DNA from: Candidatus Poribacteria bacterium
GTDB lineage: Bacteria > Poribacteria > WGA-4E > PCPOR2b
Direction of reading: 5' to 3'
DNA: 64,000 nt
Assembly (NCBI GenBank): GCA_965207095.1
Contig: CBDBMC010000001.1
Location: 74,357-138,356 of the forward strand
Shown here: positions 1 through 36,747 of the stretch, in pieces
How positions within the stretch are numbered: the stretch's first letter is position 1
Layout: each line of letters starts with the position of its first letter
The notes under the pieces: generated by a model
Database searches by the model: none
What the model saw: the letters and a program-made list of their open reading frames with translations, nothing else
Told to the model about the DNA's origin: nothing
Translations under genes and position numbers: made by a program

Positions 1-230
1 CGGTCCTCTTTAGAAAGTTGCTCACATGTCGCCCCGCTGGGGCTTAGGTTGTTTGTTTGTCCTGTATTCTATAAACATGTCGCCCCGCTGGGGCTTTGGG
101 TCTGTTTTAGGAGTAGGTGAAACGTCATCTTTTACCATTCTAAGGGCACAATCAACCGATTTTGAGAGTATTTACCCGTAAAATGATAACTTTCAGAGAT
201 TTGGATTTTTCAAACAGGTTCTTAGCAACT
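1..230. repeat. Composite REP-bearing element, family A (truncated by window edge); REP copies at 26-44 and 76-95
   Basis: About 250-bp unit recurring at 8248, 18132, 51233, 57257 and 62003. It holds two direct GTCGCCCCGCTGGGGC hairpin motifs separated by a conserved 31-nt spacer ending CTATAAAC, flanked by duplicated CTGTTTTAAGAGT..GAAACGGTCATCTT arms. Confidence 0.8.
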
Positions 231-276: not shown

Positions 277-3200
277 TTAGAATACCATCTTCTGCGTGGC
301 GGAATAGTCTCCTGCGGATAGGTGATAGAAGTAGACCCCGCTTGCTACCCCCTCACCGACGTTGTTTCTGCCATCCCAATAGATTGCTTTTGACCGACCC
401 TCGTAGACCGCTGCAATTCGATGCCCCACGTCGATTGTGCGGACGACCTGACCTGCTCCGTCATAGATGGTCAGGGTAACGAAAGCATCCTCTGCCAACC
501 GATACGGTATCCATGTCTCTGGATTGAACGGATTCGGATAATTTGCTAATAGTTCCGTCTCCGTCGGTATCTCGTAGGCAACCAATTCTGGTAACTGAAT
601 CAAACCCCATTTCACATCTTCAACTGTAACGGTATATCGCAACGGTTGCACACCGATGAGTGGATTGGGAGACCGAGCCGAGATTTCAAGGATATCGCCA
701 ACTGTAGCTGCGCGTCCTGTCTCTATATCAACGATGGCGGACCGATAACCGGCCGCATCGGGTGAGGTAACAGCAGCAACTGCACTGCGGGTTGAAAGGT
801 TCTTGACGGTTACTCGGAAGCTTTCTAACTTTAAGCCTGTTTCTTCGTCAACTATTGAACCGCTCAACCCCAAAATGGGTGTAACAGTATCCACTTCGAT
901 ACCCCGCATTACTACCGGTGACGCGGCAGCCATCGCGGAGGTATTATACCAGCCACTACCGGAGATAGCTACCGTTTCCTCTCGTAAAGTGGTCATGATA
1001 AAGGACTGTCCCCCGATGATTGCTATATCTGCAGAATCGCTTGTGGGATTAATCTGTTTGAACTCCCCGTTGTTATCTTGTGCCATAATCACAAGGACGT
1101 TATCTGCAATCCCTTCAAGAGTAAACAGGTTGCTCACATGGGTTATCCTTGAATCTCTCAACGGCACTCCCACAAGGTTGATACCGGGGTTTAGAGTGAT
1201 GATGCTGTTTCCATCTGTTCCGAGGCTGCTACCGCGCAGACGAAGCGGCACCGGGGTTATCAGATTGGTGATAATCCCCATATCATCAGTCAACTGTCTG
1301 TCAACGGGGGTGCTTCTGTCCGAGGGTTTGAGATAGCCAATCCATTGCTGAGTTTGGGAATTACGGGTGAAAAGGTAGATGACATTATCCTCGCTACCGA
1401 GTGCGTCGTAGAGGTCGCCGACCGATTCGATTGTCCCCGCTACTCCGTCAACCATCCTCACCTTCAACGGAACGTGAATCAAGCTGATACCTGATGGAAG
1501 AGCGAGATCAAATTCGAGTAGTTCAGCAACAGCATGAAAGGTCACAGTTTCAGCAATTCCTTCAACACTCACCCGAACTATGTTTGTGACAGGGTCGTTT
1601 CCAAGGGTCAGGGTACTTCGCGCTAAGCCGTTGGCATCACTGTCTACACTTGTCTCACTCAGCAAGCCTCCGCCTACGCTGGCAAGAAAGGTTACAGTAA
1701 CCCCTTCCATCGGGTCGTCGTACTGGTCGTGGACTTTTACGATGAAGGGTTGCATCAACGTCTCACCGGTCAACCCGATTTGATTATTGCCGGAAACGTA
1801 CTTCAGTGTCGTTGGTATCGGTAGTGGGGGAGTCGCCTCTGCACTAAAGAGTGCTGTTTGGGAAATACCTTCGGCACCGACTTTGACCACGTTCGTTCCT
1901 AGATTCGGTCCCAGCGTGAGGAGACTCTGTGCCCTACCATTGGCATCGGTTGTGGTGTTTGTCACACTGAGCGTACCACCGCCTGCAACAACAGCAAATG
2001 TGACCGAGCGCCCTGCGAGCGGAGAACCGTTTCCGTCCCTCGCTTCAACGACAAACATTTTTGCTAAAGTCTCATTAGGCATACCTTCCTGATTATCGCC
2101 TGAGATTTTCAATAGTTTTGATAGCGCAGATAGCGGCAATTGGTTGTATATGACTTCTGGGTCAAATAATATGGTTGAATCTTGACCCATTATAGCTAGC
2201 GTCATTCCATCAGGTGAAAATATGGGCCGTTTCCGAGCTGCAAAAATTTCAGAATCCAAGGTGGCAACAAATCTAGACGTTCTTGCATCCCAAACACTAA
2301 CCGAGCCACGACTTTCACGACTAGTACTTCTTAAAATCATCATTGAACTATCGGGTAAAAATGCCATAAAATCATTTCTATCAATAGTAGCCATGTCTCG
2401 CGTTATTAGATTCCATACCTTCACTCCTACATTTAATTTATGAAAAACAAGCATTGTTCCATCAGGCGAGAACGCTGCATAAGGACTATCACCGTCCAAG
2501 ATTTCAATGTTTTGTTTTGTGGCTATATCCCACAATCGAACAGTTTTGTCCCGTGATACAGAAGCAAGGGTATTCCCATCCGGCGAATATGTTATATGCC
2601 TAACTCCGTCTAGAGGTCCTCCCAATGTGGCGATAGGCTGCCCTGTTACAACATCCCATAATGTGATTATATGCCTCGTAGCCGATGCAAGCGTCTTTCC
2701 GTCAGGTGAAAACGCCCAATCTGCAACTGATGGATTTTCAATGATACCCGTCTGTGTTTGGGTTGGAACATCCCATAATCTGGTAAACTTTTCCCCACCG
2801 ACACGATACGCAAGTGTTCTCCCGTCCGGTGAAAACGATACAAGCCGAACATGGGAACTAGGCTTTACAGGAATAGTGGCAACATCTCTTCCTGTATTGA
2901 CCTCCCACACTTTTACGCCTCGAGTACCACCCGTTGCAAGCATGGTGCTATCAGGCGAGAACGATATAGGGGTCAATCCTATATGCCCTAAGTCAATAGT
3001 ATTGCCTGTGTTAATATCCCATACCTTTACAATATCATTCTGGGCATCAACAGTAAGAAAGGTCTTTCCATCTGGTGAAAAAACAATAGAGTTCATGTCA
3101 TAAACAGTAGGATCTTCATAAAGTGCAATAATGGACCGCGTTGTTACGTCCCACAAATGAATTGTATCAGGCGGAGAAGCCTCTATCCAAGCGAGTGTCT

Positions 3201-6003
3201 TTCCATCGGGCGAAAAAGCCACAGTCGAGATGCGCTCTGTCCTTCTAATCGTAAGGAGTTCTGTCCCTGTTATGGTATCCCACAATTTTACTGTGGCATC
3301 CCCTCCACCCGATGCAAGTATATTTTCAGTTGGTGAAAATGCGATAGAATTGACACGACCTGCATGCCCAAATGTATTTTTCAATTGACCTGTTAAGACA
3401 TCCCACACTCTTACTAATCCAGCCCACCCAGCACCAGCAATTAGAGCACCATCATGTGACACTGATATGGTATCAATAGTATCTTCAGAGTCCAGCCGTA
3501 CAAGCTCTTGCATTGTCACAATATCCCATAGTATTATTGTCCTTCCATCGGAGGACGCAATAGTTTTTCCATTGGGAGAAAATGCTACATGTCTACCAAT
3601 TCCTCCATCTGAACTAAAAGTAGTAATTTTTTCTTTTGTTACAATACTCCACACCTGATTCTGAATAAGCCCCTCCCGTGAGCTGCCAACAATGGCATTT
3701 CCATCGGGTGAAAATGCGATACTGTTCACAGGATATTGACTAGGAAGCAGCGCAACTTCCCTATAATTTACCGTATCATAAAGCCATATACCAGTACTGC
3801 TTGATACGGCGAGATATTGACCGTTGGACGAAAATGCTGCCGCCCTATCACTCCAGCCAGGACCTCCTTTGCCTATTCGGAATCTTGCTCTAGTTGGCAA
3901 ATTCCACGTTTGATACCTATTGCTTTCTCTTACTTCTTGTGTGCCTTCTAAAATTGTCACAGCTACCTTAGAACTATCCACTTGCTCTGTCGGTTCTTCC
4001 GAAAGGGTAAATTTTCTACGAGAAGATACATCCCCATTTATATCAACGGCTACAATAGAAATATCCTGTTGGGTATTCGTAGAAAGGCTAGTAAAACTGC
4101 TGCCTGGCACATCGCCATCATATTCAAATTTCACAACAACTTCCTTTTCGCCCATCAGGTGACGGCATGCTTTCACTTCCGGCAAACCAGCCGGAGCCAG
4201 TGAGCCTGCTGATGTAACAAAGAAGATAACTTGATGTATCCCTTGCGAATCAGCAACCTTAACTTGAATATCGACACTTTCTGATCCTGCTGGATACGTA
4301 GTTGATGAAGTCGATTTGATCGTTGGGGAACGCCCATTTTCAGTTGGAATATCAGGGTTGAAATAAGGACTTACCGACAAAAAATCAGCACTGCATTTGG
4401 ACAATCTATCTTGATCAGGCCCGTCACTAGGCGCTCGATTGTATCCCGCCCCATACGACATGATATATCCGCCGCTACGGAAATCGTGTTGTAGTCCAAA
4501 CGCGTGACCTATCTCATGAGCAGAGAGTTTATCATACCCCGGTTCGTTAGCCTCTATTCTGTCCTGAAAATGATGCGCAGGGATTAAGAGATTTCCACCA
4601 TTCTTTCCAGAACTCCCTGCATTAGCATTCACGCGGCTATTTCCAACTCCCGTACCAATACCATCAATGCTACTATCGACGACAATAAAGTAGATGTTTT
4701 GCCAAACATCAAATTCTTGTCGGACCTCAGTACGCACAGTGTTACCTGTATCGTCAACATAGTAAATCTCGGACTGTTGCCCATCCACACGATGTACCAC
4801 CGGCTTGCCTTGTGCATCACTTTCAATCTTGAAAGTCATATCATATCCATGCACCTTCATACTCTCGTTATAGAAGACTTGAACTCTGAGAATCTCATCT
4901 TTCATCCGCTGAACCACATTTTCACGATATGGACGGTCATTTGGTAAGAAGTAGATCAGCCGTACCGTGCGCGGTTCGCCGACGTTCCGCCCGCCAGCTA
5001 GAACGTCAACAGTGACTCCTCGATTCTGGAGGGTTGGGATATGGGTGCCGGAGGATGGAGAACTGAGAGGGTTTCCTCGCAGATAGACCATGTCTCCATT
5101 TCCCAATCCCGTATTTGCCACTAATGCTGATATATCCGATATCGAGTTGTCCACAACATACAGCGATGTCAGATTAGTCAAGCCCGAAACCGCTGATATA
5201 TCTGATACCCAGTTATACGGAAAATGCAGGTATGCCAGATTAGTCAAGCCCGAAACCGCCGATATGTCCGATACCAAGTTATACCCAAGATACAGCGATG
5301 TCAGCTTAATCAAGCCCGAAACCGCCGATATGTCCGATACCGAGTTGTTCCTGAGACTCAGGATTGTCAGATTAGTCAAGCCCGAAACCGCCGATATGTC
5401 CGATACCAAGTTATCCTGAAGATTCAGCGATGTCAACTGAGTTAAGTCTCCCAACGCTGATATATCTGATACCGAATTGTTTGAAAAGCCCAATGTTTTC
5501 AGGTGAGTCAAGTCCGAAACCGCCGATATATCTGATATGAAGTTATTCCCAAGATGCAGCAATGTCAGGTTGGTTAACCCCGACAATGATGTGATGTCCG
5601 AAATTGAGTTATTCCCAAGATGCAACGATCTCAGATTAGTCAAGCCCGAAACCGCCGATATATCTGATATGAAGTTCCACCCAAGATACAACGTTCTCAG
5701 GCTGGTTAACCCTGACAATGATGTGATGTCCGAAATCGAGTTGCGCCCAAGATACAGCGATATCAGGTTGATTGCATGTTCCAGCCCGGTCAAATCACTG
5801 ATGTTGGACTCTCTCGCTGTAAGACTTCTCAATGCTGCCATATCTGACGAGGTGATGGGATCACCTGACGCCTTGCCCAATTCCGCCATAATTGCAGCGC
5901 GGAGGTTGGGATCAGGGATGTCTACCGTTTGTGCGGTTGACGTTGACGGAATTGAGAGGAAAATCAACAGGATAAGGGTAAAACGATGAGCCGGTATTGT
6001 CAT
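277..6003 (-). CDS. Giant secreted mosaic protein: signal peptide, internalin-like LRRs, HEIGHAFGLQHD zinc-metalloprotease (metzincin-like) domain, WD40 beta-propeller repeats, Big (bacterial Ig-like) domains, shared DUF module, T9SS C-terminal sorting domain
   Basis: Single 1927-codon ORF; likely start at the internal ATG at 6003 (MTIPAHRFTLILLIFLSIPSTSTA signal) with GGGGAG SD. Motifs LxxLxLxxNxISDIS xN, HEIGHAFGLQHD (DNA at 4505-4519), repeated FSPDG..WD units, NYPNPFNPETWIPY...GVYFY tail (TIGR04183-like). Confidence 0.8.
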   Translation of the reverse strand: MTIPAHRFTLILLIFLSIPSTSTAQTVDIPDPNLRAAIMAELGKASGDPITSSDMAALRSLTARESNISDLTGLEHAINLISLYLGRNSISDITSLSGLTSLRTLYLGWNFISDISAVSGLTNLRSLHLGNNSISDITSLSGLTNLTLLHLGNNFISDISAVSDLTHLKTLGFSNNSVSDISALGDLTQLTSLNLQDNLVSDISAVSGLTNLTILSLRNNSVSDISAVSGLIKLTSLYLGYNLVSDISAVSGLTNLAYLHFPYNWVSDISAVSGLTNLTSLYVVDNSISDISALVANTGLGNGDMVYLRGNPLSSPSSGTHIPTLQNRGVTVDVLAGGRNVGEPRTVRLIYFLPNDRPYRENVVQRMKDEILRVQVFYNESMKVHGYDMTFKIESDAQGKPVVHRVDGQQSEIYYVDDTGNTVRTEVRQEFDVWQNIYFIVVDSSIDGIGTGVGNSRVNANAGSSGKNGGNLLIPAHHFQDRIEANEPGYDKLSAHEIGHAFGLQHDFRSGGYIMSYGAGYNRAPSDGPDQDRLSKCSADFLSVSPYFNPDIPTENGRSPTIKSTSSTTYPAGSESVDIQVKVADSQGIHQVIFFVTSAGSLAPAGLPEVKACRHLMGEKEVVVKFEYDGDVPGSSFTSLSTNTQQDISIVAVDINGDVSSRRKFTLSEEPTEQVDSSKVAVTILEGTQEVRESNRYQTWNLPTRARFRIGKGGPGWSDRAAAFSSNGQYLAVSSSTGIWLYDTVNYREVALLPSQYPVNSIAFSPDGNAIVGSSREGLIQNQVWSIVTKEKITTFSSDGGIGRHVAFSPNGKTIASSDGRTIILWDIVTMQELVRLDSEDTIDTISVSHDGALIAGAGWAGLVRVWDVLTGQLKNTFGHAGRVNSIAFSPTENILASGGGDATVKLWDTITGTELLTIRRTERISTVAFSPDGKTLAWIEASPPDTIHLWDVTTRSIIALYEDPTVYDMNSIVFSPDGKTFLTVDAQNDIVKVWDINTGNTIDLGHIGLTPISFSPDSTMLATGGTRGVKVWEVNTGRDVATIPVKPSSHVRLVSFSPDGRTLAYRVGGEKFTRLWDVPTQTQTGIIENPSVADWAFSPDGKTLASATRHIITLWDVVTGQPIATLGGPLDGVRHITYSPDGNTLASVSRDKTVRLWDIATKQNIEILDGDSPYAAFSPDGTMLVFHKLNVGVKVWNLITRDMATIDRNDFMAFLPDSSMMILRSTSRESRGSVSVWDARTSRFVATLDSEIFAARKRPIFSPDGMTLAIMGQDSTILFDPEVIYNQLPLSALSKLLKISGDNQEGMPNETLAKMFVVEARDGNGSPLAGRSVTFAVVAGGGTLSVTNTTTDANGRAQSLLTLGPNLGTNVVKVGAEGISQTALFSAEATPPLPIPTTLKYVSGNNQIGLTGETLMQPFIVKVHDQYDDPMEGVTVTFLASVGGGLLSETSVDSDANGLARSTLTLGNDPVTNIVRVSVEGIAETVTFHAVAELLEFDLALPSGISLIHVPLKVRMVDGVAGTIESVGDLYDALGSEDNVIYLFTRNSQTQQWIGYLKPSDRSTPVDRQLTDDMGIITNLITPVPLRLRGSSLGTDGNSIITLNPGINLVGVPLRDSRITHVSNLFTLEGIADNVLVIMAQDNNGEFKQINPTSDSADIAIIGGQSFIMTTLREETVAISGSGWYNTSAMAAASPVVMRGIEVDTVTPILGLSGSIVDEETGLKLESFRVTVKNLSTRSAVAAVTSPDAAGYRSAIVDIETGRAATVGDILEISARSPNPLIGVQPLRYTVTVEDVKWGLIQLPELVAYEIPTETELLANYPNPFNPETWIPYRLAEDAFVTLTIYDGAGQVVRTIDVGHRIAAVYEGRSKAIYWDGRNNVGEGVASGVYFYHLSAGDYSATQKMVF

Positions 6004-6294
6004 AGATTTTCTCCCCTGAAGCTGGAAACGTATATGGGACACTGGTATCTTGATGGTCATACCACCTACCCTATCTGGCTTGTGCCTCGCTGCCTCACCT
6101 GCTGACTTTCATTATCCCTACACGCCTAAGCTTTAGTAAGGACGACATGTGTATAAAGCACCAACCCAATGAACCAATAAACTAACAAAGTCCAGTAGGG
6201 TAATATGTAGTAGCTTCCCTTAATATAGGCTACTATAGGCAGTGTATCAGACTATAAACGGCGTGTCAAGTATGCCCTAGATGTTTTCTATCCT

Positions 6295-8127: not shown

Positions 8128-8247
8128 AATGAAGATTAAATCGGTAATTTGCTATCGGCACCAACGCGGTCCGATAAATCGAGACCAGGGTTGGAAACCG
8201 CGCCTACCGTGTGTTTCAGGGAAAATCGGGATTACCGATTTAAATAC
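8128..8247. repeat. MITE fragment of the GGTTGGAAACCGC-hairpin family (B/C)
   Basis: Near-identical to 50978-51100 (gaagattaaa..tcggtaatttgctatcg..gcggttggaaaccgcgcctac..gattaccgatttaaatactta). Confidence 0.7.
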
Positions 8248-8497
8248 TTAGAGCCTGTTTTAAAAGTGAAACGGTCATCTTTAGGAAGTTCACATGTCGC
8301 CCCGCTGGGGCTTAGGTTGTTTGTTTGTCCCGTATTCTATAAACATGTCGCCCCGCTGGGGCTAAGAATCTGTTTTAAGAGTACGTGAAACGGTCATCTT
8401 TTGCCATTCTAGAGACACAATCAACCGATTTTGAGAGTATTTACCCGTAAACTGACAACTTTCAGAGATTATTTGGATTTTTCAAACAGGTTCTTAA
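8248..8497. repeat. Composite REP-bearing element, family A; REP copies at 8294-8312 and 8344-8363
   Basis: Same architecture as the copy at 1-230. Confidence 0.85.
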
Positions 8498-8613
8498 ACC
8501 TCATTACAAAGTATCTTCGATGGCAGGTTTTCTTGAATCCGTGTAATCCTCTGATCCGCGCCAATCTGCGATTCAGACAACGAGAGAACCGTCAGCGCGC
8601 TCTACCCAACCCG

Positions 8614-9639
8614 TCAAATTGCAGCAAGCGCCGCCGAGAGTGCCTTGATGTAGCCGACGGAATATGCCAAAGCACCTCCCGCGTCAGAGCCATCTCCCTC
8701 TATCGGGAAGATATGGTCTGGATTCAAACACCCATCAAAACCCACCTCGTTGAGCGCATGGACAATCTTGAACATATTCATGTCGCCGTCGTCCAAGAGC
8801 GTCTCCTCGTAACCCCCCGCGGTTGCCAGACTGCCTCGCACGTTCCGGAAATGAACCATGAAGATCCGCCCCTTGCGTCCGTAGTTCTGAATCTCATCTA
8901 ACACCAACGGGAGTCCACCCGCTTCTGCCCGTGTCCCACAGCAGTACAGATACCCCACATTCGGACTGGGAAACGCATCAATTACCCGATGAAATCCCAA
9001 TGTGCCGAACGGTGTGTCTGGCAGGGGGATATCCGACGGATGGATCGCAAGTTTGATATCGTATGCCTCAGCGATGGGCACCAGCCGCTGGTAGACCCGA
9101 CAGAAATGTCGCCACCAATCGTCCAGTTCCTCACGGCTGGGCGGCTCGTTAGCCGGGAACAGGGACCAGTGGTGAAATCTGTACGCCTTCAGCTCCGCCT
9201 CGCTGCGGGGTTTGGGTTGGTCGCCGGTCAACCAACGGCTGCCCCCACTGCCGAGAAAGCCAGCGCGATGTACGGACCGATAGAAGGTTATCAGGTGATT
9301 GAAGGTGTCCCCTTCAAAGCGTTGCCGGGCAATGGGCATGCCTGCCTCCCCGAATACCCGCATCGCCTGCTCAGTGTTTTCCAACTCTACCTCGCTACCT
9401 TCCTCATCCCCCATAAACCTCTCGGTGATATCGGGCAAGGTCACACGATTGATTCGCAGTCCCCATGAATAGATCTTCTTTTTGATCTTGAGCAGTTCGT
9501 CCAGATCCGGGTAGCCCTGTTCCTTGACGCCGGGGAAAAAGTCGCCGGAACCGAAGTCAACGCAGTCAACCCCCAACTGTGTGATCCGTTTCAGGTAGCT
9601 GTCCGAAAGATTGCCGCAACTTACAGATATGCCAAACAT
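8614..9639 (-). CDS. Mannonate dehydratase (UxuA)-family / xylose-isomerase-like TIM-barrel protein
   Basis: 341 aa; HPSDIPLPDTPFG..., CCGTRAEAG and IFMVHFRNVRG align with UxuA HPDDPP / C.GS / IYFTHLR motifs. The UxuA WRWYG N-terminal motif is absent. Confidence 0.5.
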   Translation of the reverse strand: MFGISVSCGNLSDSYLKRITQLGVDCVDFGSGDFFPGVKEQGYPDLDELLKIKKKIYSWGLRINRVTLPDITERFMGDEEGSEVELENTEQAMRVFGEAGMPIARQRFEGDTFNHLITFYRSVHRAGFLGSGGSRWLTGDQPKPRSEAELKAYRFHHWSLFPANEPPSREELDDWWRHFCRVYQRLVPIAEAYDIKLAIHPSDIPLPDTPFGTLGFHRVIDAFPSPNVGYLYCCGTRAEAGGLPLVLDEIQNYGRKGRIFMVHFRNVRGSLATAGGYEETLLDDGDMNMFKIVHALNEVGFDGCLNPDHIFPIEGDGSDAGGALAYSVGYIKALSAALAAI

Positions 9640-9676: not shown

Positions 9677-9997
9677 TCACAATGCTATGACGCGCTCGGT
9701 ATCGTCCCACTGTGGCGATATGTGGATGCTCACCTCACAGTTGAGGCGTTCCAGAAACCGCATCAACCGTTCGACGCTATAGTAAGAAAGCTTGGCGGCT
9801 TTAAGGCGGGCAATTTCAGGTTGTTTCACGCCAAGTAACGCTGCCTCCGCCTGCGTTAGCCGGCGTTCGTCCAGGATACGGAAAATTTCTGCGCCTAACT
9901 GCGCTTTCAACAATTCTTCTTCAGCAACCTCATCAGGAAAGCCTAAATCCTTAAAAATGTTGCTGCTGCCCTGTTCAACCTTGATTTTATTACTCAT
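9677..9997 (-). CDS. HigA-like XRE-family HTH antitoxin
   Basis: 106 aa; NIFKDLGFPDE...LTQAEAALLGVKQPEIARL...LSYYSVERLMRFLERLN pattern of COG5606/HigA2-type antitoxins; start overlaps the stop of an upstream toxin-like remnant (ATGA overlap). Confidence 0.75.
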   Translation of the reverse strand: MSNKIKVEQGSSNIFKDLGFPDEVAEEELLKAQLGAEIFRILDERRLTQAEAALLGVKQPEIARLKAAKLSYYSVERLMRFLERLNCEVSIHISPQWDDTERVIAL

Positions 9998-10097
9998 TCT
10001 CTTCCATCTCCTTTGCTCGCCTTAATCTCCGTTTAATCAAATCAATTTCCTCCCTGATAGGAAGAAACCAGAAACCGGGTCCGTCCCCGCAATCAAT
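9990..10097 (-). pseudogene. 3-prime remnant (about 35 codons) of a RelE/HigB-like toxin gene overlapping the antitoxin start
   Basis: Reading frame ...WFLPIREEIDLIKRRLRRAKEMEENE* ends on the ATGA of the antitoxin; an upstream in-frame TAA leaves no start; a second copy of the same tail is at 11746-11880. Confidence 0.45.
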
Positions 10098-10282
10098 TTA
10101 TAAATTGAATGCACGACATACAGAGTCTAACTATTTCTAGTACGCCGACTGTAATTTTTCGATAGCATCCCCTCACTATAATATATGGCTGTTTACACCG
10201 CAGCTTCAGTAGAGAATCATCTTGAGGAGGTATGAACACGAAGGTAAAAAATTTAGCAAGAAATTCTGAAAATAACCAGAGC

Positions 10283-10311
10283 TTGACAAAACTTCTATCC
10301 CACGTTACAAT
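10283..10311 (+). promoter_or_regulatory. Putative sigma70-type promoter TTGACA-17-TACAAT for the tandem-repeat protein gene
   Basis: TTGACA 10283-10288, TACAAT 10306-10311; AAAGGGG SD before the ATG at 10390. Confidence 0.45.
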
Positions 10312-10389
10312 AAGGGATTATGCTGAAAACATGGTGTTGTCACAGCCACCGCGATTCACATTTCAAAATATAAGAAAGGGGTAATAATA

Positions 10390-11079
10390 ATGCACGAATC
10401 AACCAATCATATCAACGCCGTCCTTGCAGCATCTGCACGTTTAGCCGCAGACTCTGAAAAGCTAACAGAACCCAGCAATCATACCAATGCCGTCCTTGCA
10501 ATATCTGCACGTTTAACCGCAGACTTTGAAAAACTAACAGAACCCAGCAATCATCTCAAGTCCGCTCTTGCAGCATCTGCACGTTTAACCGCAGACTTTG
10601 AAAAACTAACAGAACCCAGCAATCATCTCAAGTCCGCTCTTGCAATATCTGCAGCATGTCTCACCGCAGACCTCGAAAAACTAGGAGAATCCCGTAATCA
10701 TCTCAAGTCCGCTCTTGCAGTATCTGCACGTTTCGCCGCAGACCTTCAGAGACTAAGCGAACCCAGCAATCATCTCAAGTCCGCCCTTGCAGTATCTGCA
10801 GCATGTCTCACCGCAGACCTCGAAAAACTAGGAGAATCCCGTAATCATTTCAAATCTGCCCTTGCAGAATCTGCACGTTTCGCCGCAGACCTTCAGAAAC
10901 TAAGAAACCCCAACAATCATTTCAAATGTGCCCTTGCAGAATCTGCACGTGCCGCTGCGACCTCTGAAAAAGCGCAAGAGCATCGAAACAATTACGTCGA
11001 GACCAACTACAATCGCGACTTAGCTTATCAGGATAAAGAAGAACCTGTGGACATGCCATCGAAGATTATAACAAGGTAG
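10390..11079 (+). CDS. Hypothetical protein built of about 9 tandem 20-aa repeats (EPSNHLKSALAVSARFAADLQKLS)
   Basis: 60-nt period at DNA level over 10405-10960; AT-rich relative to flanks; good promoter and SD. Confidence 0.55.
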   Translation: MHESTNHINAVLAASARLAADSEKLTEPSNHTNAVLAISARLTADFEKLTEPSNHLKSALAASARLTADFEKLTEPSNHLKSALAISAACLTADLEKLGESRNHLKSALAVSARFAADLQRLSEPSNHLKSALAVSAACLTADLEKLGESRNHFKSALAESARFAADLQKLRNPNNHFKCALAESARAAATSEKAQEHRNNYVETNYNRDLAYQDKEEPVDMPSKIITR

Positions 11080-11231
11080 TAATATCTGCTTTGGAATTAG
11101 GTAAGAATCTTATTGGAAACGAGTTAGCTTTTTCTGCAGGAAATCAGGAAACTTCAAGCAACACTACGTATATTGAGCAAATAAACATCACATTTAATAT
11201 TAAACACCTAACCCAGGGAGAAAGCTTTGAA

Positions 11232-11600
11232 ATGAAATCTGAAATATCTAATAGCCAAGTAGGCGTGTTGAACACAGGAGAGATGCAAGCTAAATCAATA
11301 ACTGGAAGCGTCTCCCCTTCGGTTGATCCCAACCAACATCAGATAGCGGAAGCACTCACAAGTTTAACGGAAGCAGTAAAAGCCAGCCAAAACATCTCGT
11401 CACAACAACAAACGGAAATTATAGAGCAATTAGAATTACTTAATGAACAAGCTAAATTAGCACCCTCTGAACGAAAAGTAGGTCTTATCAAGCCTATCTT
11501 ATCCACACTTTCCACTGCTCTCAGTGCAGGAGGCGGAGCAGCTGAGATATGGTCTCAGTGCGGTGATGCAATAAAGATTTTCTTTGGTATTCACGAGTAA
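11232..11600 (+). CDS. Hypothetical S/Q/T-rich protein (start uncertain; may be the frameshifted continuation of the upstream gene)
   Basis: ORF open from 11037; first ATG at 11232 preceded by GGGAG; different frame from 10390-11079. Confidence 0.3.
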   Translation: MKSEISNSQVGVLNTGEMQAKSITGSVSPSVDPNQHQIAEALTSLTEAVKASQNISSQQQTEIIEQLELLNEQAKLAPSERKVGLIKPILSTLSTALSAGGGAAEIWSQCGDAIKIFFGIHE

Positions 11601-11674
11601 AATTCAATCAATTGACGGATCTGCTTGAATCCGCGTCATCTCTTAATCCGTGACAATCCGCGATTCAGACGGTA

Positions 11675-11880
11675 TCTTCATCAAGGCAGTTATATGAAAA
11701 CGTACCTAATGCCGCCATTGAGAGAATATTGCTCATAAGCCGCTCTCCATCTCCTTCGCTCGCCTTAATCTCCGCTTAACCAAGTCAATCTCCTTCTTGG
11801 GTGTACTTATCCCACGTTGAAATTTCTGTCGCATTTCAGCTGCGCCTTCCGATAAAGCCCCGGCGGGGTGACAGGTGTAT
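11675..11880 (-). pseudogene. Second degraded copy of the toxin tail plus first codons of the HigA-like antitoxin
   Basis: ...KKEIDLVKRRLRRAKEMESGL* overlapping ATGA with a 23-codon MSNILSMAAL.. fragment; same DNA as the 9990-10060 junction. Confidence 0.4.
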
Positions 11881-11992
11881 TATACCTCGCCGGTGTCCAC
11901 CCAATCGAAGACGTATTTTGGATTATACAGAAACATCAAAACGCTTCAGAAACTCAAGATTATTGCTACTCTGAAGGTCTGACAAGTGAATG

Positions 11993-12970
11993 ATGTAACT
12001 CTTGATTGTTAATATAACGCAAGTTGCTAGATGTTTATTTAATGATGAGTGTAATCATAGTGGCAATGAGAAACAAAACCACTTTAATCTCAAATCCAGC
12101 GGCAGTCACTGCATGAATAGAACGATGGTAGCCGTTGGGTGCATTAGACCGTTTGTCACCTCCACCCGCTTGCGATACTGATGGTGTAGGTAAACTTGCC
12201 ATCGGTTTATATTGACGCTTACTGTTTTTCTTACGCAACGGTTTGAGCATAATACCGGCTTGGGACAAAGCAGTCCTCAGAATCCCATAATTACAATAGG
12301 CTCTATCTGCATGAACAACCGCTCCCTGAGGCAAATCAAACGGATAACACCGCAACCCCATCACATCACCAAAACTGCCCGGTGTTAAGAAAAACTCAAC
12401 CGGCACACCACGCTCAGTGACCATCAGATGCAGTTTGAGTCCATAGAAGTATCTACGTTTACTGGTTATCTTACCGCGCCACTCTTTACCTTGATACAGT
12501 TTTGCACTAGAGATACGAATTGGGTCACATGCTGGAACGGGATACGAGTCAATAGCATAGATTTGATGTGAGTTTTGTGCTTTACAGTTAGCGGCTATAG
12601 ATTCAAAAAGTATCTGAAACATCGGTGCAATTTGATGGAGTCTGCGGTTGAATCGTGCTTTACTGAGCATATTGGGAATATATCCCTGTTCTTTGAGTAG
12701 GTGTCGTGCCAGCTGTTGATTGCCACCGAACAGTTCTGCTGCCACTAAGGCGGTGGTCATTACTTCTGCGGCAGACATTTTGGTTCGTGGGTCATCTTGA
12801 TATCCGTGTTGAATTAACAGATCGTCACAAAGTGTATAAAATGCTACGATGACTAAGTCCATGGGATTCTCCTGTTTATGAGGTTTGTTGTCGCTAACAA
12901 ATACTCTAACGGAAATTCCATGGATATTCAAATAGCAACTTGCGTTAATATAATGGACGACAGCATCCAA
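11993..12970. mobile_element. IS982-family insertion sequence with about 21-bp imperfect terminal inverted repeats (TTAATATAACGCAAGTTGCTA)
   Basis: Left TIR 12009-12029, right TIR 12933-12953 in inverted orientation; single DDE transposase ORF inside; inserted into the RAYT gene. Confidence 0.75.
12035..12862 (-). CDS. IS982-family DDE transposase
   Basis: 275 aa from ATG 12862; N-terminus MDLVIVAFYTLCDDLL... is the typical IS982 start (ΦΦCxVDDF motif). Confidence 0.75.
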   Translation of the reverse strand: MDLVIVAFYTLCDDLLIQHGYQDDPRTKMSAAEVMTTALVAAELFGGNQQLARHLLKEQGYIPNMLSKARFNRRLHQIAPMFQILFESIAANCKAQNSHQIYAIDSYPVPACDPIRISSAKLYQGKEWRGKITSKRRYFYGLKLHLMVTERGVPVEFFLTPGSFGDVMGLRCYPFDLPQGAVVHADRAYCNYGILRTALSQAGIMLKPLRKKNSKRQYKPMASLPTPSVSQAGGGDKRSNAPNGYHRSIHAVTAAGFEIKVVLFLIATMITLIIK

Positions 12971-13297
12971 CTGAGAATGTACATACGAGAACGCTGCAGT
13001 AAGCCTCCCTGCCATTCAAATCTACCGACAACCGCATCCCTTTCTGTTAATCCATTTTGACGAATTTGTTTTGATATCTCTCACCAAGTCAGAAATCGCA
13101 ATGTCGGGTGTGATACCTACAAGGATATGAAGGTGATCTGGCATTGAATTAATCCGAATTACTGTCTGCTTTTTATGGGTGATAATGCGGGTAACATATT
13201 GGTGAAGTGCCTCTTTGTGCTGTTTGGGAATGAGGGATTGCCTGCCTTTGACAGCAAAAATAATGTGTATGTAAAGTTGGGTATAGGTATCAGCCAT
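12958..13297 (-). pseudogene. REP-associated tyrosine transposase (RAYT / IS200-like Y1 TnpA), frameshifted and truncated by the IS982 insertion
   Basis: MADTYTQLYIHIIFAVKGRQ...MPDHLHILVGI...SSKWINRK then a +1 shift into ...GRFEWQGG (RAYT KFEWQEGYGAFS motif) which runs into the IS982 TIR; REP doublet immediately 5-prime. Confidence 0.7.
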
Positions 13298-13315
13298 GAC
13301 TTTTGTGTGGGTCAC

Positions 13316-13385
13316 CTGTCGCCCCGCTGGGGCTTGGGAGATTTTGTTATCCCGTGTGCTCAATAAACATATCGCCCCGCTGGGG
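13316..13385. repeat. REP doublet (GTCGCCCCGCTGGGGC x2, 34-nt spacer ending AATAAAC) abutting the RAYT 5-prime end
   Basis: Copies at about 13316-13333 and 13367-13385. Confidence 0.85.
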
Positions 13386-13604
13386 CTATGTTGGTTCATT
13401 AGTCCATCAGTTTATTGGTGCAATTAATGAACCTTTGAGGCTACAGCATATTAATTTGAATCCCAAGCATCGGGATGGCGTATGCCTATCACTAACACCT
13501 TGGTTTCTATAGATTCGTGCTCATTCGTGCAGATTCACGGACGCCTTACGCCCTCTTCTTACCTGAACTTCCGTGACGTTGTTTCGTGCAGGATTGGTTC
13601 ACCT

Positions 13605-13672
13605 GTCGCCCCGCTGGGGCTTTCATTACTAGGGGATTTCACTTTTCTATAAACATGCCGCCCCGCTGGGGC
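13605..13672. repeat. REP doublet
   Basis: Copies at about 13605-13621 and 13655-13672, spacer ends CTATAAAC. Confidence 0.85.
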
Positions 13673-13847
13673 TAAATACACTAAAAATTCAGGGGGCAGC
13701 AGCCATCGTAGGGGCTTGGTTTCCAAGCCCATCGGGTTGGGTTACCCAACCCCTACGCCTCTCGCCCTCTCGTTTTTCCGTCTTCTCCGCTTTCCTCCGT
13801 GTTCTCCGTATAATCTTCTCAATCCGCGATTCAGACAAAAAGTCCAG

Positions 13848-15572
13848 CTATTTTCTGTGCCCTGACCGCAATCTTTCGGTTTCCGTCTCGTCCACCGTCC
13901 AACTCTTCCGATCAATCACTACACGGTAGACCGCCCGCGCCCGCTCAAGGCTCACCTTCCCCTCATGCACATCCCGCAGCACCAACTGCGGATCCCGTTC
14001 CGCAGCGGGACCGTATCCACCACCCCCACACGACTGCACCCGCACCATATCCCCCGGCTTCAGTTGGACGGTAACTTTTGAGCCAAGCTTGGTCGCTTCA
14101 GCGTCGGGGTTGAGTGTGTAACGCGCAATCTCTCCGTCCTCGCCGCCGAAAAGCCCCCAAGGTCCCCACTTGTCCCGATCCGCCAAGATAGTGAACGAAA
14201 CCTCATGGTCAAAGCAATAATCCCGCTGCAACCCAAGCCCACCGCGATATTTTCCTGCGCCGTCCGAATCATCGACCAACTCGTAACGGGCGATGTGTAC
14301 CGGGTAATTGATCTCCGTCTCTTCAATGGGTGCGTTCTCGGTGTTCTGCCCGTGACACTGCACCGCATCGGGTCCATCGCTGGCAACGCGCCCACCGTAT
14401 CCGCCAGCCATCGTCTCGTAATAGGCGTACAGCTCACCCGTGCGCGGCGAGGTGCCCCCGAACCCCATCTGGCACATCATCGCTTTTGTTCCGGCTGGAA
14501 TGCGGTCAGGGATGGCGGGCGCAAGCGCTTTGAGCAGGACATCGTTCAGCCGAATCTGCGTCTCCCAGCCACCGACGACAGGGAATGGCGGGGCGCAGTT
14601 GACCACTGTGCCTAGCGGTGCATCTATCTGAACCAACCGGTAGAAACCCGCGTTGACAGGTATATCGGGGTCGATCAGGCTTTTTAGGACATAGGCGCAG
14701 GCGGAAAAGGTCTGGGCATAGGTGGAGTTGACGGGTGCCCGCCGTTGGGGTTCGGAACCGTTCAGATCGAAAAGTACACCATCGTCATTGATGACTAATT
14801 TCCCCACAAGGTGCACCGGCTCATCGGTGTAGCCGTCGTTGTCGACATAGCCGTCGGCGGTGAAGACCCCTTGGGGCAGCTTGGCAATTTCTGCGCGTGT
14901 CCGACGCTCTGTATAGGCGAGCAGTTGGTCGATATAGAAGCTAACCGTTTCGGCTCCCATCCGATCGAGCAGCGCGGTCAACCGGCGCACCCCGGTATTG
15001 TTGGAAGCGACCTGCGCTCGAAAGTCGCCCGCGGTCTCGTGTTTGGATCGGATCTGTGCCAACACAAGCCGAAAAACGTCCGGATCAATCTCCCCGCCCT
15101 CCACCATCTTCACGGCAGAGATGATGACCCCCTCCTGAAAAACCTCACGGAACGCCCCGATACTCGCGGGCGCACCGCCGCCTACGTCCACATGGTGCGC
15201 GAGGTTAGCGACATAGCCGAAAAGTTCGTCCTTGTAATATACGGGTGATATAAGGGTGATGTCGTTGAGGTGGACGCCGCCGAGATAGGGATCGTTGGAG
15301 AGAATCGCGTCGCCGGGACCTAAGTTCTCCGGTCCGTATTCCCGGATAACCCGCGGGACAGACTGAGAGAGAGAGCCGAGATGTACTGGCTGCGTGAATG
15401 ACTGCGCGACAGGCTGCAATTCCCTGTCGAAGAAGGCGCACGAGAAATCGGCGCGGGTCTTGATGTTGGTCGAATAGGCGCTACGGCGGAGTGCGATGGT
15501 CATCTCCTCCGTAGCCTCGATCAGCGCATTACGGATAACTTCAAACTTGATTGGATCGAATGTTGGGCTCAT
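13848..15572 (-). CDS. Hydantoinase B / oxoprolinase-family protein (HyuB-like), paralog 1
   Basis: 574 aa; DPIKFEVIRNALIEATEEMTIALRRSAYSTNIKTRADFSCAFFD...HLGSL matches PF02538. Confidence 0.85.
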   Translation of the reverse strand: MSPTFDPIKFEVIRNALIEATEEMTIALRRSAYSTNIKTRADFSCAFFDRELQPVAQSFTQPVHLGSLSQSVPRVIREYGPENLGPGDAILSNDPYLGGVHLNDITLISPVYYKDELFGYVANLAHHVDVGGGAPASIGAFREVFQEGVIISAVKMVEGGEIDPDVFRLVLAQIRSKHETAGDFRAQVASNNTGVRRLTALLDRMGAETVSFYIDQLLAYTERRTRAEIAKLPQGVFTADGYVDNDGYTDEPVHLVGKLVINDDGVLFDLNGSEPQRRAPVNSTYAQTFSACAYVLKSLIDPDIPVNAGFYRLVQIDAPLGTVVNCAPPFPVVGGWETQIRLNDVLLKALAPAIPDRIPAGTKAMMCQMGFGGTSPRTGELYAYYETMAGGYGGRVASDGPDAVQCHGQNTENAPIEETEINYPVHIARYELVDDSDGAGKYRGGLGLQRDYCFDHEVSFTILADRDKWGPWGLFGGEDGEIARYTLNPDAEATKLGSKVTVQLKPGDMVRVQSCGGGGYGPAAERDPQLVLRDVHEGKVSLERARAVYRVVIDRKSWTVDETETERLRSGHRK

Positions 15573-18131: not shown

Positions 18132-18385
18132 TTAGAGCCTGTTTTAAAAGTGAAACGGTCATCTTTAGGAAGTTGTTCACATGTCGCCCCTCTGGGGCTT
18201 AGGTTGTTTATTTGTCCTGTATTCTATAAACATGTCGCCCCGCTGGGGCTAAGCATCTGTTTTAAGAGTAGATGAAACGGTCATCTTTTGCCATTCTAGG
18301 GGCACAATCAACCGATTTTGAGAGTATTTACCCGTAAAATGACAACTTTCAGAGATTATCCCGATTTATCGGGACAGGTTCTTAG
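18132..18385. repeat. Composite REP-bearing element, family A; REP copies 18181-18200 (variant GCCCCTCTGGGGC) and 18232-18250
   Basis: As other family A copies. Confidence 0.85.
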
Positions 18386-21900: not shown

Positions 21901-22065
21901 GTACACTGTCATTTTAGTTTTGGAATTATGACAACACACATTGCGCTCCGCTGGAGCGCAGGGATTGACCGCAGCGACGTTCTATAGACATATCGCTCCA
22001 CTGGAGCGAAAGTTATCGTTTGCTTTCAATCTATATACACAAGCATAATTTACCTGACAGTGTAC
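21901..22065. mobile_element. MITE (GTACACTGTCA... TIR family) carrying a second REP variant doublet GCGCTCCGCTGGAGCGC at 21943-22008
   Basis: TIRs as at 17060/17290; interior replaced by a REP2-type doublet with CTATAGACATATC spacer end; preceded by an IS982-TIR-like CAAGTTGCTAG. Confidence 0.7.
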
Positions 22066-22321
22066 TAGTTGACAAACCTGTAAGTCAAAATTCATGTCTC
22101 GACAACTGCTTATGCCATGATCACAGGTTAGGCAACCTGTGTCTACAAAAGACGGTGATCCTAAAGCAGTAACCTTTGGTGCTAGCTTAGTGAGATTTTT
22201 TTTACATTGTTCAAGTCGCTTTGGATCCCCCCGATAAACCGGGGTAAACTAATTATCGGGGAGTTCATGGGTTCATTAGTCGGTTGGTTGATTTATTCTT
22301 ATGTTCCCCCTTCGGATACAC

Positions 22322-22391
22322 ATGTCGCCCCGCTGGGGCTTGGCTGTATGTGTGATATCCATATTCTATAAACATGTCGCCCCGCTGGGGC
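22322..22391. repeat. REP doublet
   Basis: GTCGCCCCGCTGGGGC at 22322-22340 and 22373-22391. Confidence 0.85.
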
Positions 22392-22554
22392 TAAATGAAC
22401 CGCTGAACCAATAACTTTTACGTTTCACGCATCATGTGTCACGTTATCGACAGCTGCAAACTAGCACCATTGGTTGGTAGGCATATTCCGTATGCCGTAA
22501 CCCGTGTACAAATTACGTCACGACGCAACGCACCCATTAAATTGCACCAATGGG

Positions 22555-33161: not shown

Positions 33162-34337
33162 CAGCCAACTGGGCAGCTGTATCTAATGACACCTCACGTC
33201 CGTACACTTCGACGCCGGCTGCCTCCATGATCTCTCGCGCTTCCGCCTCCCAGTTACCGGGAACACGGAAAAGACTGATTGTGTCTGCTGGCTTCCGTCC
33301 CACACCCTCGATACCCATCAGGACACCGCGTGCGATGACGTCCGCACGGGTATTGTTCACCACATTCATGATAACTGCCATCCCTCTAACGCCCGGCTTC
33401 GACAGCAGGAGCGACGTTATGGCGGCAACCTTCTCTTCAGTTGGGTTTCCGCCTACCTCGCAGTAGTTTGCGGGAGAACCGCCGTGCGCCTTAATTGCGT
33501 CGAAAACGGTCAGGCTTGCGCCACCGCCGCCGATCAGCAACGCGAGATCGCCGTCAAATTCGACCACCCGTCCGGCTACACCCCGATGGTCTATCGCATC
33601 AATTTGTTGTGCCTCAAGTTCCAGAGGGGTGGGCGGACGACCCGCCGCGGTCATCGTCAGTTCGCCCAACGGCTCCAACCGTTCCCTCTGTCGATACACC
33701 GCCTCGTCCTCAATCTCCACCCGCGCATCAAGTCCGATAAGTTTTTCGTCCTTGGCGACGACTAGCGGATTGATTTCCATTGTAACCCCATCGCAGGCGA
33801 GAAATGCTTGGGACAACCTTGGTGAAGGAACTTCACCGACCCCCACGAGCGTTTTGCCCGTCAAGCCGACTTCGGCAGCCAGTCCTCTCGCCTTATACGG
33901 CGCAAGTCCCGTCCACGGATCGAACGGCTGCCGTGCGACCTGATTGCCCTGAGTAGATTCAACGTCCACGCCACCGGCAAGACTTAACAGGGCAACGGGC
34001 AGTTTTGCGACCGTATCCCATGTAATACCAACGTAAAACTCATGTTCGTAGTTTAGTTTCGGTTCAATCGAAATGACATCAACGGTTGTACCGCGGAGTT
34101 CCATTCCGAACAAAGCCTCCGCCGCAGCGACGGCTTGATTAACGGTCTCCGCGAACTTCACCGCTCCGACGTTTCCGCGTCCACCGAAAGGGGTCTGCGC
34201 CTTCAGGACAGCGGGCAGCCCGACACGCACTCAACGGTTGATCGCACCTCGTCCATTGAACCTACCGGTGTCGATTTCGTAAAAATTAAGCCGAAATTAG
34301 AGAGTAACTTTTTGCTTTGATGTTCGAGGAGTCTCAT
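33133..34337 (-). CDS. sucC: Succinyl-CoA synthetase beta-subunit-like ATP-grasp protein with an apparent +1 frameshift near 34226
   Basis: N-terminal 45 codons (MRLLEHQSKKLL...VECV) from ATG 34337 are in a different frame from the body (GLPAVLKAQTPFGGRG...); the paralogous fragment at 36440-36596 reads through in frame, pinpointing one extra C. Confidence 0.65.
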
Positions 34338-34443
34338 CGCTTTTCCTTTTGACGGTGGCACCTTGCGTGATTATACCATATTCCGACAAAAGGATGGAGA
34401 GGTTTTGAGTCGTTTTAACCGACTAACGCCACGCTGTGAGCAC

Positions 34444-34487
34444 AAAAAAGCGGTATCATATCCCCTGAAAGAAGACGTGATACCGCT
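34444..34487 (-). terminator. Rho-independent terminator (AGCGGTATCA stem) followed by T-run on minus strand
   Basis: 10-bp stem, TTTTTT after it on the minus strand, 25 nt downstream of the 34513-35535 stop; duplicated at 36704-36747. Confidence 0.6.
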
Positions 34488-34512
34488 AGTTGTATTACTT
34501 CAAGATGACCCT

Positions 34513-35986: not shown

Positions 35987-36117
35987 GACGAGTGAAAGTG
36001 TGCAGAAGAGAAATGTGCCTCCTTTGAATTGTTAAGAATTTTTCCCTTACATCTATTTTGAGGTTGAGTTGCGACTTATTGAAAATCCATGCTTTTCAAC
36101 TCAACCACAATCTCATA

Positions 36118-36376
36118 AGGAGCAATTATCATGCCAAAAGAGACGAAAACCGCCCAAACCCAGTGGGCATCAGGCTTCAAGCACGAAATGTCCAAAAAGT
36201 CGTTGGAGGAAATAACTTGATATTAGTAAATATTGCTAGCAAATTTTACTAATGTTAGTAAATTTTACTAATCCTCTCGCACAAGTTCTAAGGGGGCAGC
36301 CAAAGCCCGTGCATCGCTGGAAACATCTAACATATCTCACAGCCTTGTCGACTTCAACGAGTGCTTGAGATAAGGT
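36118..36376. repeat. About 260-bp repeat family D, copy 1 (palindrome TTAGTAAATTTTACTAA)
   Basis: Copies at 45487-45750 and 47241-47510; the shared small ORF MPKETK..QTQWASGF is not frame-conserved. Confidence 0.8.
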
Positions 36377-36596: not shown

Positions 36597-36703
36597 CGCT
36601 TTTCTCTCTGAAGGTAGTATCTTGCGTGATTATACCATATTCCCACGAAAAGATGGGGAGGTTTTGAGTTGTTTCAACCGACTAACGCCACGCTGTGAGC
36701 ACA

Positions 36704-36747
36704 AAAAAAGCGGTATCATATCCCCTGAAAGAAGACGTGATACCGCT
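36704..36747 (-). terminator. Duplicate of the 34444-34487 terminator
   Basis: Identical stem and T-run. Confidence 0.55.

Follow-up and report, generated by a model that had tools for sequence, protein, structure and literature searches.

The window, the whole 64-kb stretch of DNA analysed here, contains six copies of an intergenic repeat, family A, all on the + strand (c1 to c6; Table 1). By multiple alignment, the copies share a unit of about 246 bp, range in size from 196 to 247 bp and lie very close to the positions at which an earlier note on this DNA had placed six copies of a composite element. Those coordinates were near-exact overall, except at the end of c5, which had been set at 57526, about 20 nt too far (refined end, 57505); comparison of the window with itself by repeat search recovers family A at the same places. 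A central 18-mer, CCGATTTTGAGAGTATTT, is invariant in all copies while the ends vary, and by exact count it occurs six times in the window, always on the + strand, against 0.06 occurrences expected. Pairwise identity among the copies is 86-94%, each having private substitutions and unique flanks.

Every copy has stops in all frames and no coding potential, and the only ORFs associated with family A are spurious read-outs into the flanks. Two of these, at 162-479 and 8431-8901, had already been suspected of being spurious; both start at a TTG within the conserved core, and we discount them because they overlap larger genes on the opposite strand. The earlier description is extended here by four features: inverted repeats at the termini, target-site duplications of 3 bp, a neighbouring Y1 pseudogene and the occurrence of the REP doublet beyond this genome.

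Architecture of the family A element

The alignment bears out the proposed layout of the element, with an arm, a REP, a 23-nt spacer followed by CTATAAACATGTC, a second REP, a duplicated arm and a tail of about 90 nt, given in Table 1 for the focal copy, c2. The REPs are located about 40 nt and 130 nt from the element ends and form a head-to-tail doublet, CAYATGTC-GCCCCGCTGGGGC followed after about 23 nt by CTATAAACATGTC-GCCCCGCTGGGGC. The right end holds a sub-terminal hairpin that is kept in two alternative sequence forms. A compensatory change at this hairpin in c3 and c4 was considered and rejected; a swap to the palindrome CCGATTTATCGG, which has 15 copies elsewhere in the window, is the more likely event.

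Table 1. Family A copies, parts of the focal copy, solo REP doublets, the Y1 pseudogene and the junctions enlarged in the window
Feature	Position	Strand	Remarks
c1	1-221	+	left part cut by window start; TTA next at 222-224
c2, focal complete MITE, 243 bp	8251-8493	+	flanks TTA/TTA
c3, 247 bp	18135-18381	+	flanks TTA/TTA; present in L120, absent from L121
c4, 246 bp	51236-51481	+	flanks TAA/TAA
c5, 246 bp	57260-57505	+	flanks TTA/TTA; L020 site empty
c6, 196 bp, one REP only	62007-62202	+	flanks TAA/TAA
c2 left target-site duplication, TTA	8248-8250	.	matches right copy
c2 outer left arm, GAGCCTGTTTTAAAAGTGAAACGGTCATCTTT	8251-8282	+	with next ~12 nt, ~45-nt imperfect inverted repeat of right end
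c2 REP-a, CACATGTC-GCCCCGCTGGGGC-TT	8291-8313	+	5-bp G+C stem, 3-nt loop
c2 REP-b with conserved prefix, CTATAAACATGTC-GCCCCGCTGGGGC-T	8337-8363	+	the 25-mer found in 97 metagenome contigs
c2 inner duplicated arm, GAATCTGTTTTAAGAGTACGTGAAACGGTCATCTTT	8366-8401	+	first five bases degenerate among copies
c2 tail	8402-8493	+	about 90 nt
c2 tail, invariant core CCGATTTTGAGAGTATTT	8425-8442	+	exact 18-mer
c2 tail, sub-terminal hairpin TTTGGATTTTTCAAA	8472-8486	+	within tail
c2 tail, right terminal inverted repeat ...AAACAGGTTC	8478-8493	+	within tail
c2 right target-site duplication, TTA	8494-8496	.	matches left copy
Solo doublet	13313-13388 (REPs 13321/13374)	+	upstream of Y1 pseudogene
Solo doublet	13600-13677 (REPs 13608/13660)	+	same geometry, unrelated spacer
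Solo doublet	21937-22012 (REPs 21945/21995)	+	same geometry, unrelated spacer
Solo doublet	22319-22396 (REPs 22327/22379)	+	same geometry, unrelated spacer
Solo doublet	47943-48020 (REPs about 47950/48003)	+	same geometry, unrelated spacer
Solo doublet	57006-57081 (REPs 57014/65)	+	same geometry, unrelated spacer
Solo doublet	57097-57172 (REPs 57105/55)	+	same geometry, unrelated spacer
IS200/IS605-family Y1 (HUH) transposase pseudogene	13022-13297	-	Pfam Y1_Tnp E = 1e-20
Methyltransferase-Amdase junction (c3)			29 bp in relatives, 406 bp in window
GFO-HpcH junction (c4)			28 bp in relatives, 1012 bp in window
474-aa to 251-aa gene junction (c6)			41 bp in relatives, 890 bp in window

The REP doublet inside and outside family A

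The hairpin of the doublet, GTCGCCCCGCTGGGGC, has 22 matches in the window against 0.5 expected, 20 of them on the + strand. Seven solo doublets lie outside family A with a period of 49-53 nt, in line with the earlier report of doublets that keep the geometry with unrelated spacers; the spacer sequence is conserved only among the family A copies. One solo doublet (13313-13388) is found directly upstream of the Y1 transposase gene, and an inverted REP (11857-11872) downstream, such that the gene is flanked by the same REPs. We call this gene a pseudogene because its frame is shifted and an IS982-family insertion sequence (~12006-12957) interrupts it; a C-terminal remnant, YINNQELHH, persists beyond the insertion.

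The hairpin has the generic properties of a REP, namely a short extragenic G+C palindrome in many copies and a Y1 gene flanked by the repeat. It is without the terminal GTAG or CGTC tetranucleotide, being preceded by CA(C/T)(A/C)TGTC or TATAAACATGTC and followed by TT or TA; a different repeat of the window, ...GGAAACNGCGCCTAC, does carry a GTAG tag. The Y1 transposases score 62-63 bits against the NCBIfam IS200/IS605 model NF033573 (cut-off 55) and 25-38 bits, below the cut-off of 80, against the RAYT model NF047646.

The doublet is common beyond this genome. A metagenome scan with the 25-mer TATARACATRTCGCCCCGCTGGGGC (REP-b) matched 97 contigs, drawn from many environments, against a chance expectation of far less than one. 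Among the 70 matches listed, nearly all comprise an upstream hairpin, CATGCC-GCCCC/GCTCC-NNN-GGGGC/GGAGC-TT, about 26 variable nucleotides and the conserved REP-b. The period is again 49-53 nt, with tandem arrays of up to seven units, and full-length Y1 transposase homologues adjoin such REP arrays in two loci, L043 and L090, where they too are flanked by the repeat. The arms and tail of family A are absent from the metagenome loci bearing the 25-mer, which indicates that the doublet is widespread and Y1-associated, whereas the backbone of the element is lineage-specific. A full-text literature search for the REP core sequence gave nothing relevant.

Searches for the backbone gave a consistent picture. 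Scanned for the exact 18-mer, 185,579 species-representative genomes yielded 17 single matches, the number expected by chance, with similarity stopping at 19-30 nt; one of these, upstream of a TnpB-like ORF in Lyngbya PCC 8106, was considered and judged to be chance. A backbone 21-mer had no match in the JGI metagenomes, viral contigs gave two chance matches only, and blastn against plasmids and phages gave none. An nhmmer profile of the inner arm and tail (arm2 + tail), run against 122 loci, matched only the orthologous c3 site of L120, a strain 99.6% identical to the window. The earlier note's condition that copies be restricted to this contig is thus answered only in part: among the data searched, the backbone was found in the window and at that one L120 site and nowhere else.

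Inverted ends, target-site duplications and empty sites

Family A starts with GAGCCTGTTTTAA and finishes with TTCAAACAGGTTC, the left GAGCCTGTTT... pairing with the right ...AAACAGGTTC. These terminal inverted repeats are imperfect, extend over about 45 bp and begin 5'-GAG(C/A)CTGT. When the left 45 nt or so are aligned to the reverse complement of the right end, 32-35 of 43-46 positions align, and the inner arm aligns worse. Four of the five copies retain the outer GAGCCTG end; c6 reads GAGCTTG.

The trinucleotides that flank the element on the left and right are identical in all five complete copies, being TTA on both sides in three and TAA on both sides in two. Because the same trinucleotide occurs on both sides, we read it as a direct duplication; extension of the inverted repeat would place TTA on one side and TAA on the other. 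If the right trinucleotide belonged to the element, the left/right match would arise by chance with p about 0.04. A 2-bp TA duplication of the IS630/mariner type was also considered and rejected, as it would need asymmetric ends that are inconsistent between copies.

Orthologous sites without the element were found for two copies. In L020, a syntenic 928-kb contig with about 84% nucleotide identity to the window, the c5 site is empty and holds a single TTA (tatctgTTTAatccggcgattcagaca versus tatctgTTTA[246 bp]TTAatccgtgattcagaca in the window). The c3 site is empty in L121 (95.6% nucleotide identity), with one TAA on the opposite strand (gggaatgtcTAAgtagcg versus TAA[c3]TAAgtaatt), and is filled in L120, which was assembled independently. 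Family A insertion is polymorphic among close relatives. The two empty sites therefore show that the REP doublet enters T(T/A)A targets together with the rest of the composite, as a single unit. Together with the terminal inverted repeats, the five matching duplications and a spacer conserved only among the element copies, they uphold the earlier proposal that the REP doublet resides in a larger MITE spreading as a unit. Family A is thus very probably a MITE that moves as a whole, with the REP doublet as passenger and a 3-bp TWA duplication at each insertion.

The same data bear on whether the copies are real. An assembly or collapsed-repeat artefact could be imagined in that the source organism is uncultured and the sequence probably a metagenome assembly, a circumstance that lends it no specific support; the copies, however, diverge by 6-14% with copy-specific substitutions, each has unique flanks and its own duplication, and c3 is reproduced in the independent L120 assembly. 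We regard an artefact as vanishingly unlikely, which answers the doubt that the earlier note had raised about its own copies.

Probable mechanism and candidate transposase

Family A is very probably a non-autonomous DNA transposon of about 246 bp. Its insertions target T(T/A)A, and the three target bases end up duplicated. Its inverted ends and short duplication of fixed length point to cut-and-paste by a DDE transposase, which would act in trans. The REP doublet is, on this reading, passenger DNA, copied each time the MITE moves.

GAG termini characterise the IS1031 group, and TTA/TAA duplications characterise the eukaryotic Tourist/PIF-Harbinger MITEs. Family A shows the 3-bp TNA target duplication of the IS1031/IS427 type, as TTA or TAA; within the IS5 family, the IS1031 group is described as typically using a three-nucleotide target (PMC2516522). 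The likeliest source of the transposase may accordingly be sought, with about even confidence, in an enzyme of the IS5 family (IS1031/IS427-like, a type that corresponds in bacteria to PIF/Harbinger-Tourist), an assignment that is indirect because no partner element was found. An autonomous partner with GAGCCTGTTT ends occurs neither in the window nor in about 50 kb of relatives, where the element and its end motif are both absent, and the end motif has no further occurrence in the window with up to three mismatches allowed. Ten further ORFs of the window contain no transposase domain, and a DDE insertion sequence in L020 does not have the family A end motif. The window's only DDE gene, that of the IS982-family insertion sequence, was rejected as a partner, since its ends, TTAATATAACGCAAGTTGCTA, are unrelated.

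Strand orientation and possible single-strand transposition

All 19 oriented repeats of three families in the window are on the + strand (family A 6/6, solo doublets 7/7, GTAG-type REPs 6/6), with genes on both strands. GC skew is negative across almost the whole window, which may therefore lie on a single replichore. Both observations would suit a composite mobilised as single-stranded DNA by an IS200-like Y1 (RAYT/TIRYT-like) transposase acting on the internal REPs or on sub-terminal hairpins, with T(T/A)A as a target or cleavage motif and not a duplication; so would the Y1 (pseudo)gene flanked by the same REP and the retention of the right-end hairpin in two sequence forms. The position of the REPs, well inside the element, argues against such a route, as do the ends, true inverted repeats without counterpart in IS200/IS605 elements. 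Furthermore, the flanking trinucleotide co-varies between left and right in 5/5 copies and is present just once in the empty sites, and the backbone is absent from all 97 other REP-bearing loci. HUH/Y1 transposition is not known to make a target duplication. We consider Y1-driven mobilisation of the composite very unlikely and retain DDE cut-and-paste as the preferred reading.

The uniform orientation across three repeat families counts against this preference. DDE cut-and-paste does not predict six of six copies in the same orientation (two-sided p about 0.03), and uniform orientation is the pattern expected of single-strand, replication-coupled transposition.

It is conceivable, though rather unlikely, that the head-to-tail doublet is an undescribed cross-lineage class of Y1-dependent repeat, that family A is a dual-substrate hitch-hiker whose REP cargo dictates its orientation, or both. 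The candidate class would have the form CAYRTG(T/C)C-GCCCC-NNN-GGGGC, about 26 nt, then TATAAACATGTC-GCCCCGCTGGGGC, with a period of 49-53 nt and tandem arrays possible, and would be distinct from GTAG/CGTC REPs and from inverted REPINs. As a hitch-hiker, a DDE-mobilised MITE would spread a Y1-type REP cargo, and the cargo or replication-strand constraints would set the orientation of the MITE.

Effects on host genes

Three copies, c3, c4 and c6, are found at gene junctions that are far shorter in relatives (Table 1), and at each family A is one of several stacked repeat families. Relative to their operons, c6 lies in sense and c3 and c4 in antisense orientation. We read the copies as selfish insertions into intergenic DNA, formerly tight operon junctions included, and no host function need be invoked to account for them. 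The terminus of c6 had been thought to supply the AAGGAGG ribosome-binding site of gene 62219-62974, a claim that does not hold: the GGAGG resides outside the element, and L020, which is without the element, has AAGGAG there. The copy sits directly in front of the native GGAGG, and what adjoins this motif is just the AA of the duplicated TAA target.

A host-selected functional module, such as a small RNA gene, an mRNA-stabilising or terminator cassette or a promoter, was weighed against this reading. The invariance of the central 18-mer amid variable ends would fit such a role, as would the single orientation of all copies and the presence of several copies inside former operons whose downstream genes are not obviously lost. 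RNA folding, which the earlier note had proposed as a check, cuts both ways: family A is modestly stabler than shuffled sequence (z = -2.3 to -2.5, about -2.4), but none of 75 predicted pairs shows a compensatory change (RNAalifold). Family A has no Rfam match even at E up to 5; the window as a whole has no match at gathering score in Rfam 15, with only chance-level eukaryotic matches at E above 1 around c5. In or around c5, there is no terminator-like site and only weak promoter-like sites. Moreover, the element stands sense to one operon and antisense to two, its presence/absence polymorphism and target duplications denote arrival by transposition, and it is absent from close relatives that retain the same genes. 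A host-selected module is highly improbable on this evidence, and we keep to selfish insertion.

A possible origin of the composite

The inner arm repeats 37 nt of the outer left end. Decay has turned its first five bases into GAATC, GCATC, GAGTC, GCGTC or GGGTC, differently from copy to copy, whereas four of five copies keep the outer GAGCC, as would be expected were the outer end the only one to serve in transposition. Directly before the inner arm stands ...GGGGCTAA or ...GGGGCTTA; solo doublets for their part typically end in ...GGGGCTAAAT, which places a TAA target exactly where the inner arm begins. A short ancestral MITE, consisting of the inner arm and tail, might thus have inserted at the TAA that normally comes after a REP doublet; if another left end on the upstream side of that doublet later took over as the terminus in use, the result would be a miniature composite transposon carrying the doublet as its cargo. 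We put forward this scenario tentatively, as the most economical origin and with less than even confidence, because no short form without the doublet was seen either in the end-motif search of the window or with the nhmmer profile across 122 loci. The earlier note had spoken of the doublet being captured into the MITE. The doublet does sit inside it, but the direction of capture is conjectural, insertion or rearrangement into a master copy being equally possible. The single REP of c6 could reflect loss of the other by recombination between the direct REPs or an older one-REP form, and the flanks fit both.

Relation to known elements and significance

Family A resembles the IS5-derived MITEs (IS1031/IS427; Tourist/PIF-Harbinger) in being under 300 bp and non-coding, with GAG/GG ends and a 3-bp TTA/TAA (TNA) duplication, and also in its AT-rich intergenic targets, many dispersed copies and presence/absence polymorphism among strains. 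It differs from them in its duplicated left end, its REP hairpin cargo and its single orientation, and in that no cognate transposase or full-length IS was found. Apart from its uncommon passenger, family A belongs to a known kind of MITE family and is an ordinary example of bacterial mobile DNA.

The closest precedent is provided by the REP dimers embedded in longer palindromic or TIR repeats of Anabaena variabilis (GTAG-15) and Halothiobacillus neapolitanus (CGTC-1) (Di Nocera et al. 2013, PMC3733652). There too, a REP dimer lies in a longer unit with complementary ends, and the combined unit is repeated. Those dimers are GTAG- or CGTC-tagged and mostly head-to-head, whereas that of family A has a CATG(T/C)C tag and is head-to-tail, an arrangement reported to be rare (Di Nocera et al. 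2013, PMC3733652). The host repeat of family A further differs in having a duplicated arm, a 90-nt tail, and documented target duplications and empty sites.

The doublets share with REPIN/REP-RAYT systems (Bertels & Rainey 2011) and TIRtrons the short G+C hairpins, intergenic location and fixed spacing, and in both cases repeats in inverted orientation lie on either side of a single-gene Y1 (HUH) transposase. Reverse-complemented, the REP of family A reads GGGG(C/T)GAC and so resembles the motif GGGGWSAS of TIRtron/TIRYT repeats (Di Nocera 2013, PMC3733652). REPINs, however, are inverted doublets that form one long hairpin, whereas the units here are direct and head-to-tail, with the prefix on the same side of both and in tandem arrays of up to seven, their palindromic cores still being able to pair with each other in predicted folds; by score, the transposase here is a generic IS200/IS605 enzyme and not a canonical RAYT. 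Like E. coli BIMEs and pneumococcal BOX elements, family A is a modular repeat combining a hairpin with other conserved modules, although none of the E. coli BIME motifs is present in it. Like composite transposons, it holds cargo between two copies of a transposon end; unlike them, it is miniature, with a 95-nt cargo and one left end that is only a 37-nt fragment.

For annotation, family A accounts for spurious ORFs and for the growth of intergenic regions from about 30 bp to about 1 kb in an uncultured lineage, and its insertions provide strain-level presence/absence markers. The identical REP-b 25-mer in 97 metagenome contigs, an incidental finding, may be of more general interest. Should the uniform orientation extend genome-wide, family A could be used to test whether an otherwise orientation-neutral transposon comes under replication-strand constraints from its REP cargo. 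At the level of sequence, the element is a clean example of a DDE-type MITE that carries a Y1/REP-type repeat.

Strain-variable segments and transposase remnants

Comparison of the window with a strain at 99.6% identity (L120) revealed a strain-variable island. In the window, the island comprises two repeat-rich ORFs, a Y1 transposase pseudogene, an IS982-family element and REP doublets; in L120, three different genes are present instead, one for an HTH protein and the others ORFs of 483 and 154 aa. The Y1 pseudogene bears a frameshift and is split by the IS982-family element. IS-end fragments related to this element also occur at 48128-48168 and 52917-52957. Variation extends to the REPs themselves, with a single REP at the 13.6-kb locus in L121, a relative at 95.6% identity, versus a doublet in the window. 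A 1.4-kb segment holding a 289-aa ORF is absent from another relative, L020; the C-terminus of this ORF gave a weak Pfam match (E = 0.004) and a match to TIGR01453 (E = 1e-8) that falls below the cut-off.

Other repeats in the window

We observed a second REP class, of a GTAG-tagged type, with the motif GCGC(A/G)GTTGGAAAC(A/C)GCGCCTAC. Its six copies (0.03 expected) are all on the + strand, and three of them lie 44-77 nt upstream of copies c2, c4 and c6 of family A, the MITE with an internal REP doublet. Further MITE-like families have ends AGGACTTACGC...GCGTAAGTCCT and contain the palindrome CCGATTTATCGG, of which the window holds 15 copies where 0.7 are expected. Copies c3 and c4 of family A carry this palindrome in place of the right sub-terminal hairpin. 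Repeat family B has inverted ends, and one of its copies adjoins the left duplication of c2.

Two in-frame tandem repeats lie within ORFs, the larger of which, of 1927 aa, is similar to a relative's surface proteins of the cohesin/dockerin type. Three dispersed repeats have matches in the flanks of an L020 insertion sequence of the DDE type (DDE_5/DDE_Tnp_1) and probably represent remnants of IS ends or a further MITE family.

Coordinates of repeats and associated features (window positions unless a locus is named)
Feature	Position	Strand	Remark
Strain-variable island	9682-13850; L120 5538-8625		
REP flanking Y1 pseudogene	11857-11872	-	
IS982-family insertion sequence	about 12006-12957		ends TTAATATAACGCAAGTTGCTA
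IS200/IS605-family Y1 transposase pseudogene	13022-13297	-	flanks are REPs of the family A doublet type
289-aa ORF	56100-56969	-	C-terminus weakly similar to GIY-YIG / group I intron endonucleases
GTAG-type REPs	8193-8207, 48533-48547, 51036-51050, 51168-51182, 61916-61930, 63232-63246	+	motif occurrences
MITE-like families with CCGATTTATCGG	50745-50890, 61405-61620, 61630-61860		plus 15 sites
Repeat family B	8140-8247, 50990-51093		...CGGTAATTTGCTATCG...GGTTGGAAACCGCGCCTAC...ATTACCGATTTAAATACTTA
Tandem repeat, 66 nt	4991-5818		9 or more units, in ORF 277-6060
Tandem repeat, 72/147 nt	10363-10971		in ORF 10390-11079
Dispersed repeat pair	34225-34659 / 36484-36919		
Dispersed repeats	36101-36385, 45489-45755, 47236-47566		match L020 element flanks
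DDE insertion sequence	L020 14060-15313		
REP-b metagenome loci	L060 580-900; L023 550-840; L090 127-2040		examples

Occurrence beyond the window

Lyngbya sp. PCC 8106 has a 20-nt stretch matching the family A core (L014 5616-5635), with a TnpB-like ORF about 130 nt downstream. As no similarity continues past the 20 nt and the total of genome matches equals chance expectation, this match is presumably a coincidence.

The REP-b 25-mer, which spans the second hairpin of the doublet and its conserved prefix, occurs in identical form on 97 metagenome contigs (L023-L119). At these loci it is nearly always part of a head-to-tail doublet with a period of 49-53 nt, and some loci carry up to 7 units in tandem. 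In several lineages, the 25-mer forms the centre of longer composite repeats that are the lineage's own.
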